Positions 15,033-61,839 of a stretch of DNA of 64,000 nucleotides are shown piece by piece (position 1 is the first letter of the stretch; every line of letters begins with the position of its first letter). The translations under genes were made by a program, and so were the position numbers. Source of the DNA: Sphyrna mokarran (Eukaryota); the NCBI GenBank assembly GCA_024679065.1, contig JAGIQG010000024.1, positions 24,614,001-24,678,000 of the forward strand, written 5' to 3'. The notes beneath the pieces were generated by a model. That model saw only the letters and a list, made by a program, of their open reading frames with translations. It searched no databases and was not told the origin of the DNA.

Positions 15033-15228
15033 CAGGCCTGCCACACTGCTCATCCAATCAGAGGGCACGCAAGCAGGCCTGCCACACTGCTCATCCAATC
15101 AGAGGGCACGCAGGCCAGCCTTTCATGCTGCTCATCCAATCAGAGAGCAGGCAGACCTGTCACACTGCTCATCCAGAGGGCAGGCAGGCCAGCCTTCCAT
15201 GCTGCTCATCCAATCAGAGAGCTGGCAG
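15033..15228 (+). repeat. About 40-bp tandem repeat, 5 units, four with CCAATCAG
   Basis: Unit caggcctgccacactgctcatccaatcagagggcacg. CCAAT at 15054, 15095, 15136 and 15210. Confidence 0.9.
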
Positions 15229-53371: not shown

Positions 53372-53672
53372 GACACAGCATAGTGGTTAGCACTGCTGCC
53401 TTACAGCGCCAGGGACCTCGCATTTGATTCCTGGCTTGGGTCACTGCCTGTGCGGCATCTGCATGTTCTCCCCATGTCTGCATAGGTTTCCTCCAGATTC
53501 TCCAGTTTCCCCACACAGTCTGAAAGGTGTGCTGATTAGATGCATTGGCCATGCTAAGTTCTCCCCCAGTGTACCTGAACAGGTGGCAGAATGTGGTGAC
53601 TAGGGGATTTTCACAGTAACTTCATTGCAGTGTTAATGTAAGCCTATTTGTGACACTAATAAATAAGCTTAA
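53372..53672 (+). mobile_element. V-SINE with type-B tail
   Basis: Head gtggttagcactgctgccttacagcgccagggac, V-domain, tail ttgtgacactaataaataagctt. Confidence 0.88.
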
Positions 53673-56820: not shown

Positions 56821-56940
56821 CAAAGAACAAAGAACAAAACAGCACGGGAAACAGGCCCATCGGCCCAACGAGCCCACGCCGCCACCTCGATGTTCCCACT
56901 TCTACCCATGATCCCTGTCATCCCTGTCTATGTTTACAGA
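56821..56940 (-). mobile_element. CR1-type 3' tail with (TTCTTTG)n
   Basis: caaagaacaaagaacaaaacagcacgggaaacaggcccatcggcccaacgagcccacgccgcc, near-identical to 56964-57012. Confidence 0.8.
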
Positions 56941-56943
56941 TCT

Positions 56944-58652
56944 TAAGAGTTAAGAGTTAAGAGCAACACAGCACGGGAAACAGGCCCTTCGGCTCAACGA
57001 GCCCGCGCCGCCATCATAACTATATAGTAGCAATTCCATTATCCTATTATAAATTAAGGTTATTCCTAATATGGAAGACTCTCACTATAGGGACAATTTG
57101 TTTCCCAATCAGCCTAAGAGCGAATTTTTGGGTTGTGGGAGGAAACCGGAGCGCCCAGAGAAAACCCACGCAACCACGGGGAGAACGCGCAAACTCCCGC
57201 AGACACCGGCCCAATTCCAAGTGTCTGCACAGCCACATCGATAGTCTCTGAGCTGTCATGGTGCCCTTCAGATGGTCCACATAAAGCACTCATTTACGAC
57301 ATGAAGTACCAGGCAACCCATGAATCAACATCCAAGAGCTGTCCTTGCACCACCTGCCGAATGCATGCTCTTTGTTGGTCAAGTGTGGACCGAATTACCT
57401 GTGGAAAAAAAGCCGTAGTTAAACAGTCCTACTATATCCCTCTATCTGCATACCGCTCATGTGGCTGTCCAAGAGACCCTTAAACAGCCCTAGCGTGCCT
57501 GCTCCCACCACCTTACTCGGCAGTGCATTCCACACCCCCACTACCCTTTGTGTGAAAAACTGCCCTCTAATATTCGTCTTATACATAGCCCCCCTCACCC
57601 TATGGCCATGACCCCTCGTCCTATCCATTTCTGAAGGTGGAAAAAGTTTACCTCCATTTACTCTATCTATACCCCTTATAATCTTATACACCTCTATGAG
57701 ATCCCCTCTAAGCCGACGTCTTTCAAGGGAAAACAACCCCAGTCTATTTAATCGTTCCTCATAAGACAGTCCTTCCATACCAGGCATCATCCTGGTAAAC
57801 CTCCTCTGCACTCTCTCCAAGGACTCCACATCCTTCCGATAGTACGGCGACCAGAACTGGACGCAGTATTCCAAGTGAGGCCTAACCAACGTTCTATACA
57901 ACTGCAACATCAAACTCCTACTCTTGTATTCTATACCCTTTTCTATGAAAGCTAACATACTATACGCCTTCTTTATCACCTTCTCCACCTGTGAGGACAC
58001 CTTCAGAGACTTGTGAACCTGCACCCCCAAGTCTCTCTGCGTCTCTATGCTCCATATAGTTTTACCTTTTATCCTATAACTCTCTTCTACATTTTTCCGG
58101 CCAAAATGCATCACCTCGCATTTATCCAGATTAAATTCCATTTGCCATCTATCTGCCCAGTCTACCAACCTATCTATGTCCTGTTGTATTGCCTGACACT
58201 GCTCCTCTGTACCCGCCAATCCAAGCATCTTGGTCATCAGCAAATTTGCTGATCTCACCACCTACCCCAACTTCCAAATCGTTTATGTAGACCACAAATA
58301 GAAGAGGACCTAGTACTGAGCCTTGTGGCACTCCACTAGTGACAGGCTTCCAGCCGGAAAAAGAGCCTTCCACTACTACCCTCTGTCTCCTCCTCCCGAG
58401 CCAGTTCTCGACCCATCTACATACCCGACCCTGTATCCCATGCGCCTTCACCTTCTCTATCAGTCTACCATGAGGAACCTTGTCAAACGCCTTACTGAAA
58501 TCCATGTAGATGACATCAACAGCATGTCCTTCATCAACTGTTTTTGTCACTTCCTCAAAAAATTCCACTAGATTTGTAAGACAAGACTTCCCCTTGACGA
58601 AGCCATGCTGCATATCCCTGATCAGATCGCAGCGCTCCAGATGCTCATACAT
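56944..58652 (-). mobile_element. Young 5'-truncated CR1 LINE with a long 3' UTR containing a V-SINE core
   Basis: ORFs 58170-58652 and 57419-58261 encode RT ([43 protein letters not shown]) with one frameshift near 58235. V-domain at 57134-57205. (TCTTAAC)n tail. Confidence 0.9.
57419..58652 (-). pseudogene. CR1 ORF2 reverse transcriptase, truncated and frameshifted
   Basis: Continuous CR1 ORF2 similarity over two overlapping frames. Confidence 0.92.
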
Positions 58653-58875
58653 TATGCATTAGAACCAAATTTGAGGCAATTTAAGGAGAATTTGTTCTGC
58701 TAATCATTCTAAGAGCACATCTTTGGGATGTGGGAGGAAAACCGGGGCACCTGGAGAAAACCCACGCAAGCATGGGGAGAATGCGCAAACTCCCACAGAC
58801 ACAGGCCCAAATCCACGTATCTGCACAGCACAGCGATAGTCACTGAGCTGTCGTGTTGCCCATCAACTGGTCCAG
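58653..58875 (-). mobile_element. Second, diverged copy of the V-domain plus decayed-head module
   Basis: tgggaggaaaaccggggcacctggagaaaacccacgc...ggcccaaatcca...tctgcacagc...cgatagtcactgagctgtc...tggtcca, colinear with 57134-57279. Confidence 0.8.
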
Positions 58876-59399
58876 GTCAAGCATTTGAAAACATTGAAGT
58901 TGCACTGCCTTAATAAAAACTCTTGAAGCATCATATGATGTGAGAAGCAGTACTGTGCACAGAATAGTGAAGCTCTAGCAGGGTTGTTGAAGCAGGTTAT
59001 CTGAATGTTATTAGTTCTGACTGAGTGCAGTACTAATCCGGTGCCAAGGAAAGCTTTTTAAAGCCCAGGTGTGCTCAATACAAATTTACACTGAACCTTC
59101 AGCTGTGTCCTTTGCATTTGTCTGAGCATTCTGCCCAGTGCTCCAGTGATTAATAGTCATTAAGTATATAAATCACCTGAAAGCAGTGTGTGTTGTTATC
59201 ACATTTGGTGTTTCAATGCTCTGTGCAAGAGAGAAGTGAGATGAGTATTTGTGTCTGCAGCCTTTTCCAGCCACATTGATGGCCAGCAAAGAAAAAAACA
59301 GCAGGAAACAAAAAGAATGTCTCCTCTCATGGTGAAGGGCATAACTATAGCCCTTCAATTTAAGGCGTTAACTCAAGAAATGCATTTGCTCAAAACAGC

Positions 59400-61765
59400 A
59401 GTAGTAATGGGGGACTTTAACTTTTCTAATATCGATTGGAAAAGCTATAGTTCAAGTACATTAGAGGGGTCAGTTTTTGTTCAATGTGTGCAGGAAGGTT
59501 TCATGACTCAGTATGTAGATAGGCCAACAAGAGGTGAGGCTATATTGGATTTGGTACTGGGTAATGAACCAGACCAGGTGTTAGACTTGGAGGTGGGTGA
59601 GCACTTTGGTCTTAGTGACCACAATTCGGTTACGTTTACCTTAGTCTTGGAAAGGGATAGGCACATACCGAATAACAGTAATTATAGCTGGGGGAAAGGT
59701 AATTATGAGGCTATTAGGAGAGATTTAGGATGCATAGGGTGGAGCAGGATATTGCAGGGGCTGGGGACATCTGAAATGTGGAGCATATTTAAGGAACAGC
59801 TTCTGCATGTCCTTAATGAATATGTACCTGCCAGGCAGGGGGGAAGTGGTCGAGTGAGGGAACCATGGTGTACTAGGGAAGTTGAATCTCTGGTGAAGAG
59901 GAAGAAGGAGGCTTATATAATGATGAGCCGTGAAGGCTCAGTTAGGGCACTGGAGAGCTATAAATTAGCCAGGAAGGAGCTAAAGAGGGAGTTGAGAAGA
60001 GCTAGAAGAGGACACGAGAAGATTTTGGCAGATAGGATTAAGGAGAATCCTAAAGCTTTTTATAGGTATATAAATAATAAAAGATTGGTTAGGGCAAGAT
60101 TAGGGCCAGTCAGAGATAGCAGTGGGAAGTTGTGCGTGGAGCATGAGGAGATAGGAGAGACACTGAATGAGTATTTTTCGTCAGTATTCACGCAGGAGAA
60201 AGACAGTGTTGTCAGGGAGAATACTGCGATACCAGGTTGTAGACTGGGTAGGATTGAGGTTCATAAGGAGGAGGTGTTAGCGAATCTTGAGGGTATGAAA
60301 ATTGATAAGTCCCCTGGGCCAGATGGGATTTACCCTAGGATTCTCTGGGAGGATAGAGAGGAGATTGCAGAGCCTTTGGCTTTGATCTTCATGTCGTCGT
60401 TGGCTACAGGTATAGTGCCGGAAGACTGGAGGATGGCAAATGTTGTCCCTTTGTTCAAAAAGGGGAGTAGGGACCATCCTGGAAATTATAGACCGGTGAG
60501 CCTGACTTCTGTTGTGGGCAAAGTCTTGGAAAGAATTATAAGGGATAGGATTTATAAGCATCTAGAGAGAAATAAATTGATTAGGGATAGTCAGCACGGT
60601 TTTGTGAAGGGTAGGTCGTGCCTCACAAACCTTATTGAGTTTTTTGAGGAGGTGACCAAAGAGGTAGATAAGGGTAAGGCAGTTGATGTAGTGTATATGG
60701 ATTTTAGCAAAGCGTTTGATAAGGTTCCCATGGTAGGCTACTGCAGAAAGTGCAGATGCATGGGATTGAAGGTGATTTAGCAGTTTGGATTAGGAATTGG
60801 CTAGCTGATAGAAGACAGAGGGTGGTGGTTGATGGGAAATATTCAACCTGGAGTGCAGTTACAAGTGGTGTACCTCAAGGATATGTTTTGGGGCCACTGC
60901 TGTTTGTCATTTTTATAAATGACCTAGATGAGGGTGTAGAGGGTTGGATTAGTAAATTTGCTGACGATACCAAAGTGAGGGGAGTTGTAGATAGCGAGGA
61001 TGGATTTACAGTTTGCAGAGGGACATAGATAGGTTGCAGAGCTGGGCCGTGAGGTGGCAAATGGAATTCAATACGGATAAGTGTGAGGTGATTCACTTTG
61101 GTAAGAATAACAGGCATATGAAATATAGGGCTAATGGAAGGACCCTTAATAGTGTTGTCGAGCAGAGGGATCTTGGGGTACAAGTACATATGTCTTTGAA
61201 AGTTGGCACCCAGGTTGATAAAGTTGTTAAGAAGGCGTACAGTGTGTTAGCTTTTATTGGTAGAGGGATTGAATTTAGGAGCCGTGAGGTTATGTTACAA
61301 CTGTACAAAACTCTGGTGCGGCCGCACTTGGAGTATTGCGTACAGTTCTGGTCGCCGCATTATAAGAAAGATGTGGAAGCATTGGAAAGGGTGCAGAGGA
61401 GGTTTACCAGGATGTTGCCTGGTATGGTGGGAAGGCCTTATGAGGAAAGGCTGAGGGACCTGAGGTTATTTTCATTAGAGAGAAGAAGGTTACGCGGTGA
61501 CCTAATTGAGGCGTATAAGATGATCAAAGGACTGGATAGGGTGGATAGTGAGAGCCTTTTTCCTCGGATGGGGATGACCAACATGAGGGGACATAACTTT
61601 AAATTAAGAGGTGGTAGTTATAGGACGGATGTCAGAGGCAGGTTCTTTACACAGAGGGTGGTGAGGGCGTGGAATGCCCTGCCTGCAGCAGTTGTGGACT
61701 CGCCTACTTTGGGGGCATTCAAATGGTCGGTGGATAGGCATATGGATGATATTGGAATAGTTTAG
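59400..61765 (+). pseudogene. CR1 ORF2 (endonuclease-reverse transcriptase), two frameshifts, no internal nonsense codons in the tracked frames
   Basis: ORFs 59251-60780, 60750-61028 and 61013-61765 join into one ORF2. Confidence 0.93.
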
Positions 61766-61839
61766 GTTAGAGGGTCCACTGGCTGGCGCAACATCGAGGG
61801 CCGAAGGGCCTGTACTGCGCTGTAATGTTCTATGTTCTA
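59400..61839 (+). mobile_element. Young CR1 (HER1-like) LINE, 5'-truncated inside the endonuclease domain
   Basis: VVMGDFN...ILDLVL...SDHN (APE endonuclease C-terminus), KSPGPDGI, NYRPVSLTS, KFADD. Frameshifts near 60730 and 61005, stop at 61765, tail (ATGTTCT)n. Confidence 0.95.

Follow-up and report, generated by a model that had tools for sequence, protein, structure and literature searches.

Can a LINE take up the front of a SINE and keep it? The question is raised by the 3′ end of a CR1 LINE on the minus strand of a 64,000-nucleotide stretch of the Sphyrna mokarran genome, referred to here as the window. Behind the ORF2 stop the original prediction had seen a decayed tRNA-like head with a dead Pol III promoter, a preserved V-domain and a CR1 tail, and had proposed that sequence had passed here from a V-SINE to a LINE, which kept the V-domain while losing the promoter.

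Layout of the locus

All of these parts could be located on the minus strand (Table 1), in a young copy, belonging to what is termed here subfamily A, that is 5′-truncated within ORF2. The unique UTR behind the stop, previously put at about 140 nt, measures 152 nt (57418–57267) and is non-SINE. It is followed by the V-SINE-derived head, by the V-domain, and finally by the CR1 stem-loop, which is similar to the tails of short-UTR CR1s, and the (TCTTAAC)n tail, both as first described.

Table 1. Parts of the young CR1 copy and of the older copy that surrounds it (positions in the window)
Feature	Position	Strand	Remarks
CR1 LINE copy, subfamily A	56943..58652	-	97% identical throughout to full-length copies (~4.8 kb, with both ORFs)
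ORF2, 3′ part	57419..58652	-	single frameshift near 58230; stop at 57419-57421; RT and endonuclease domains seen in full-length relatives
Spacer with terminal polypyrimidine tract and CAG, splice-acceptor-like	57399..57418	-	length varies among subfamilies
Upstream block, non-SINE, 132 nt: closing stem, short hairpin, long irregular hairpin	57267..57398	-	similar fold in four subfamilies
Head, remodelled V-SINE tRNA-type; box A altered, box B deleted	57206..57266	-	predicted hairpins, one pairing with the V-domain start
V-domain	57134..57205	-	72 nt
Post-V stretch, SINE-derived as well	57088..57133	-	28-33% off free SINE; 9-15% among subfamilies
Variable spacer	57013..57087	-	34-92 nt across subfamilies; aligns poorly, 35-47% mismatches
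CR1-type 3′ stem-loop, presumed ORF2 recognition site	56964..57012	-	0-8% among subfamilies; 26-28% off free SINE tail
Terminal tandem repeat (TCTTAAC), 7 nt x 3	56943..56963	-	three units
Older subfamily-B copy, 5′ part (end of upstream block, head, V, post-V); insertion target	58653..58882	-	91% to B copies; itself 5′-truncated
Older subfamily-B copy, 3′ part (spacer, stem-loop, repeat tail)	56821..56942	-	maps immediately behind the 5′ part in intact B copies

The sequence from 58653 to 58875, which had been listed as a diverged copy of the module, does place the module in a second subfamily but is not a separate upstream copy, being the 5′ part of a split subfamily-B copy. Since 58882–58653 and 56942–56821 adjoin on intact B copies, an older relative was the target of the young LINE, whose insertion shows no evident target-site duplication. 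Besides the window case (58653/56942), young CR1s nested in module-bearing copies were seen at L042, at L154 and L159 (same place) and at L280, one of them lying inside the V-domain. The window also holds a second long CR1 (59245–61839, plus strand), of a short-UTR lineage with 68% ORF2 identity and without the module, and a tandem array at 15033–15228 with a 41/74-bp unit that carries a CCAAT-like motif.

Relatives of the window copy carry the features of a CR1. The ORF2 of the full-length copy L161 matches RVT_1 (E = 4e-33) and Exo_endo_phos_2 (E = 7e-11), and the 301-residue ORF1 of copy L164 matches OSK above the cut-off and Lipase_GDSL_2 just below it (E = 5e-7; 30.9 bits against 32.9). 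The 3′ stem-loop, the short tandem-repeat tail and staggered 5′ truncations are present, as for a CR1-clade LINE, and short A runs end some full-length A copies. By the features tested (ORF1 esterase, ORF2 endonuclease and reverse transcriptase, and tail) the element is a CR1 and not a V-SINE; the ORF2-end tree described below was built from copies of the Sphyrna mokarran genome only. At full length, elements of A measure ~4.8 kb and those of B ~4.65 kb, and both terminate in the module. Of 11 loci of subfamily A retrieved through their 5′ portion, nine end in head and V-domain, one is interrupted by another CR1 and one breaks off at an assembly gap; six of seven long subfamily-B loci end in the module, the seventh being cut off within ORF2.

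At the other end of the element, the 5′ UTR of subfamily A contains tandem subunits of ~184 bp with a TATA-like box in each (L156:265–607; also L157–L159), and the box and the sequence following it are also kept at the 5′ ends of the subfamily-B copies L254 and L257–L260. The tandem subunits suggest a promoter built of upstream monomers, like that of mouse L1.

The module is copied together with the LINE

An exact search for a 27-nt motif of the head gives 34,224 matches in the genome, against none for the reversed control. With the UTR as query, the best 40 of 1980 candidates scored all matched over the full length at 99–100%, and every one of the 30 best matches that were fetched continues into ORF2 or its stop (96–99%) with staggered 5′ ends. 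Because this sample had been selected by the UTR, two further samples were taken, one with the head motif and one with an ORF2 motif. An ORF2 end lies directly upstream in 25 of the first 30 head-motif matches (tblastn). Across 68 consecutive head matches (50 B, 11 C or D, 6 A and 1 unassigned), no module begins at the head, with 66 measured 5′ ends at least 59 nt upstream of it and the other two likewise, by eye; this set requires an intact head start, includes four pairs of segmental duplicates and overestimates a few 5′ extents (overlapping loci). The ORF2-only motif has 9,571 matches, and the first 30 copies selected with it all carry head, V-domain and tail, 29 of them intact and one split by a later CR1 insertion, in keeping with the proposed amplification as a unit.

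Two observations had been named as pointing to a one-off SINE insertion at this locus. Neither was found: no copy lacking the module was among the 30 ORF2-selected ones, and no free module starting uniformly at the head was among the 68 consecutive matches. A one-off insertion is rejected on the strength of the 34,224 head matches, the fetched UTR matches and the ORF2-selected copies. Contigs of two other organisms join ORF2 to the upstream block, and two further organisms cover parts of the module, so that the module is not confined to the Sphyrna mokarran genome. Module and LINE have multiplied as a single unit, tens of thousands of times over, and it is close to certain that part of a V-SINE was captured by the LINE and has since been propagated with it.

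Older variants of the module, 84–89% identical to the four consensuses, were seen at L089:1–303, L122:1496–1820, L012:2788–3112 and L088:2276–2588 and are probably further subfamilies. Near-identical duplicated segments with module copies occur on contig C1 at ~813/1,642 kb, 1,691/1,697 kb and 2,235/2,238 kb.

Origin and remodelling of the head

The head is homologous to that of the free V-SINEs, the alignment score being reached by 0–1 of 2000 shuffles in three subfamilies. It differs from the free SINE head at 35–39% of aligned sites, in subfamilies B and C mostly by transitions, and lacks ~19 nt including box B. The V-domain is 7–12% off the free SINE consensus (88–93% identical), the comparison being with free SINEs of the same genome (11 free V-domain SINEs within the window). 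Free V-SINEs are abundant in the genome (11,482 exact head matches); they are probably HE1-type, judging from a family table in PMC3747384. ARAGORN, run at a relaxed threshold on 20 free SINE heads, gave mixed isotypes and no single tRNA species. Beside the CR1-tailed free V-SINEs there are others, near 53436 (plus) and 25099 (minus), whose different tail is presumably L2-like; the two tail types point to at least two partner LINEs.

The promoter of the module is dead, as first described: box-A-like and box-B-like motifs are both absent from all 173 module copies, the latter being present in 42 of 94 other V-domain matches. A V-SINE would be a short non-coding element whose 5′ end is fixed at the head, and none of the 68 consecutive module matches has that form. 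The V-domain of subfamilies A, B and C also contains a T4 run, which would stop Pol III and is missing from the free SINE consensus. To call the head decayed, as the original prediction did, is too strong. Between LINE subfamilies it differs by only 5–11%, which argues that the head is not decaying and was remodelled once, with deletion of box B, and then conserved.

Apparent constraint on the module

The subfamily consensuses rest on 6 copies of A, 15 of B, 7 of C and a single one of D. Between A and B, 60 of 139 four-fold sites in ORF2 differ, compared with 5 of 72 positions in the V-domain (p = 1.5e-8 against the four-fold sites; 3–7% across LINE subfamilies), 6 of 60 in the head (p = 2.7e-6), 7 of 46 in the post-V stretch, 38 of 131 in the upstream block (p = 0.017) and 1 of 49 in the tail; both spacers are altered in length and sequence. 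The pattern is the same between B and C (four-fold sites 56/146, V-domain 3/72, head 3/60), and in the shallow comparison of A with C the V-domain alone is significant (p = 0.017; head p = 0.65), the rate contrast resting largely on one deep split, B against A/C/D. After insertion the four regions decay alike (0.016–0.034 in B), so the V-domain is no mutation cold spot. It retains 5–7 CpGs.

The proposal that the V-domain was kept while the head was lost is therefore borne out in its first half only: both regions change far more slowly than the four-fold sites, and in the suggested comparison of their rates the head is held about as tightly as the V-domain (6/60 against 5/72) and does not decay faster. 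Constraint also extends to the remodelled head and into the non-SINE upstream block, so that a unit of about 310 nt is conserved and not the V-domain alone. Purifying selection on the module is very likely. A coding role was rejected, there being, by eye, no reading frame common to A and B.

Predicted RNA fold

The ~310 nt from the acceptor-like site to the post-V stretch are predicted to fold beyond shuffles (z = -2.85 and -3.26), with a fold that is alike in four subfamilies, and over 18 genomic copies, 17 of them distinct, pairing is kept in 93% of cells. Thirteen of 89 pairs are altered on both sides (8 in the long hairpin of the upstream block, 3 in the helix between head and V-domain and 2 in the last V hairpin), compared with 8.4 in shuffles, 1 in 500 of which is as high, and 1–5 in slid controls; these counts are of related copies, not independent events, and are inflated by that relatedness, and the structure itself was derived from a single sequence among them. 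With RNAalifold the long hairpin, the head–V helix and both V hairpins are recovered, whereas the head hairpin and the closing stem are not. Searched with the module, no Rfam family reached its gathering score, the best E-values being 3–9 with scores well below it. In 12 of the 30 ORF2-selected copies just 121–125 nt of the upstream block align, and a sublineage of A without ~9–11 nt of the short hairpin has amplified well (L035:2780–3104; L269–L289, 12 of 30 loci), so that part of the fold is dispensable.

The both-side changes in the last V hairpin occur in single old copies only, which indicates that the V-domain is conserved at the level of sequence and could equally act in DNA. The module might then be an enhancer or factor-binding site that aids transcription of source copies, the fold being incidental. 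The V-domain is conserved in its primary sequence, shows hardly any covariation within itself and keeps 5–7 CpGs, which would suit such a role, and raised transcription and epigenetic control are counted among the possible roles of SINE central domains in the accessible text of PMC4824008. The adjoining block, however, has pairs changed on both sides, the remodelled head is predicted to pair with the V-domain and the folding beats shuffles; a role in DNA would thus seem unlikely. Constraint and predicted fold together indicate that the module probably acts at the RNA level.

The splice-acceptor-like site

Homology between the subfamilies resumes at a pyrimidine tract followed by CAG/G (YAG/G). 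The acceptor-like CAG is present in 43/43 A, 9/9 C and 3/3 D copies and in 76/99 B copies, the B set containing copies picked for a disrupted acceptor site. A consensus donor lies within the 5′ UTR of subfamily A, ahead of ORF1 (L156:729; acceptor 4615), where B has no consensus site. This donor, found in A only, and the acceptor-like site (window 57399–57410, minus) would bracket both ORFs.

It is conceivable that the module is a spliced 3′ exon, part of a short Pol II RNA without ORF2 that carries the V-domain and the ORF2-binding tail as a regulator or decoy. The tract and YAG/G lie exactly where homology resumes after freely changing spacers, as such an exon would have it, and the donor in A would provide its partner. 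The predicted A junction, on the other hand, has no genomic copy in the assembly, and in the search for altered acceptors, which covered subfamilies A and B, only 187 B and 17 A copies came up, the 30 and 17 examined being truncations or point changes with unrelated flanks. Among the 15 joints listed, out of 36 in four contig runs guessed to be RNA, there was no donor–acceptor joint, a result that is to be read with the caveat that contigs cannot show absence. With B also lacking a consensus donor, a spliced exon appears unlikely, slightly more so than a role in DNA. The acceptor-like site is conserved in all module subfamilies.

A probable single capture from SINE to LINE

CR1s with the module fall into one clade, with a support of 1.0, in a midpoint-rooted tree. 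It was drawn from 101 CR1 ORF2 ends in fetched DNA, a sample enriched for the module, and includes each of the 51 ends that lack a V label and an evenly spread selection of the 50 that have one. Three ends without the label also lie within the clade, each of them a B copy with a disruption of its own, and the CR1 lineages outside it have a UTR of ~60–110 nt where the tail is readable. At least four subfamilies of this clade (A, B, C and D) have the module attached to ORF2.

The low divergence of head and V-domain could also be that of a neutral passenger, kept similar by recent exchange between subfamilies or by conversion by free SINEs. Nesting of one copy of the clade within another is frequent (window, L042, L154) and would give opportunities to recombine, and just one deep subfamily split was sampled. 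Yet the UTR and ORF2 trees agree in setting B apart from A/C/D, the flanks of head and V-domain are more diverged than the two themselves, and the LINE-specific V differences and the remodelled head are common to different subfamilies and absent from the free SINE consensus, all of which makes a neutral passenger improbable.

The tRNA-head remnant, the restriction of the module to one clade and the wider spread of V-SINEs, which range from lamprey to cnidarians in the accessible text of PMC4824008, support one capture from SINE to LINE and with it the reverse flow originally proposed. The usual direction, in which V-SINEs would have obtained the V-domain from the UTR of this LINE, has a precedent in LINE 5′ UTRs that have supplied SINE bodies (accessible text of PMC5786205) but is largely refuted by the tRNA-type head remnant standing in register with the V-domain and by that breadth of V-SINEs against a single CR1 clade here. 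A direct donor SINE with the tail of the module was not found among 30 free SINEs, apart from one weak, low-scoring local match of 39 columns upstream of L318. An insertion into the UTR, or a template switch there, accounts best for the capture; acquisition by read-through into a now-extinct SINE subfamily may be considered as an alternative route.

Proposed mechanism and significance

The element is best explained as an autonomous CR1 lineage that carries the 5′ ~180 nt of a V-SINE in its 3′ UTR, likely as part of a folded RNA element, a reading to which we give a probability of about 0.7. One ancestral CR1 would have taken up the front half of a V-SINE between its stop codon and its CR1-type tail, the uptake including the 132-nt block and proceeding by insertion or template switch. 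The Pol III promoter would then have been destroyed through deletion of box B, change of box A and the gain of T4 in the V-domain (subfamilies A–C), and the head would have refolded against the V-domain. The resulting ~310-nt element may raise the yield of transposition-competent RNA, through stability or through assembly with the LINE proteins, and recognition by ORF2 would still be left to the terminal stem-loop; for zebrafish L2, stringent LINE proteins bind the 3′ stem-loop, according to the accessible text of PMC4176376. Short-UTR CR1 lineages have amplified recently without the module, which is thus not needed for CR1 mobility.

Going further, a vertebrate LINE might have domesticated its own parasite, with a dead V-SINE promoter, the V-domain and a hairpin block behind a conserved splice acceptor forming a ~310-nt RNA device that boosts or regulates transposition, an idea that we hold tentatively and put at somewhat below even odds. 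If it is true, the long-sought function of the V-domain would be post-transcriptional, independent of Pol III and transferable between classes of element. What SINE central domains do is described as unknown in the accessible texts of PMC4824008 and PMC11481361. Here the V-domain is constrained without Pol III promoter and SINE tail, in a self-mobilising element with young, near-identical copies, which argues against a role tied to Pol III transcription. For annotation it matters that tens of thousands of apparent V-SINE matches in such genomes are LINE 3′ ends.

Comparison with known systems

SINE pieces occur inside L1 or BovB families. A literature search, with Repbase and Dfam consensuses, the 1999/2002 HE1 papers and supplements outside its scope, found no description of a SINE-in-CR1 chimera and no AfroSINE case of a SINE in a LINE, and the accessible portions of PMC5786205, PMC4824008, PMC3747384, PMC13343379, PMC13174262, PMC11481361, PMC6036668, PMC13756887 and PMC4176376 contain no description of such a chimera. 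The nearest relatives would seem to be the HE1 V-SINE and its CR1-type LINE HER1 of sharks and rays, which, in the accessible text of PMC3747384 and PMC4824008, show the same order of head, V-domain and CR1-type stem-loop. In contrast to that pair, head and V-domain lie here within the LINE after ORF2, box B and a fixed 5′ end are lacking, the tail is 26–28% off the SINE tail and there is an extra upstream hairpin block. With the canonical vertebrate CR1, as far as it is set out in the accessible text of PMC13343379, the element shares a GDSL/OSK-type ORF1, an ORF2 with endonuclease and reverse transcriptase, 5′ truncation, the stem-loop and the short-repeat tail, but its 3′ UTR measures ~430–540 nt with the SINE module, against ~60–110 nt in the other CR1s sampled.

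Exchange of modules between LINEs and SINEs is also seen in the bipartite LINE-derived SINE bodies and in Ingi-3_AC, a 5′ UTR stretch of which is possibly derived from Ceph-SINE, a suggested instance of recombination from SINE to LINE; in these cases, in the accessible text of PMC5786205, RTE/Vingi 5′ UTRs have passed to SINEs, and neither a V-domain in a LINE nor a test of constraint is described. Alu/LINE-1 chimeras likewise unite SINE and LINE in one retrotransposed unit, but in the accessible text of PMC13174262 they are single insertions, whereas the module described here is a heritable family feature of at least four subfamilies and apparently under constraint.
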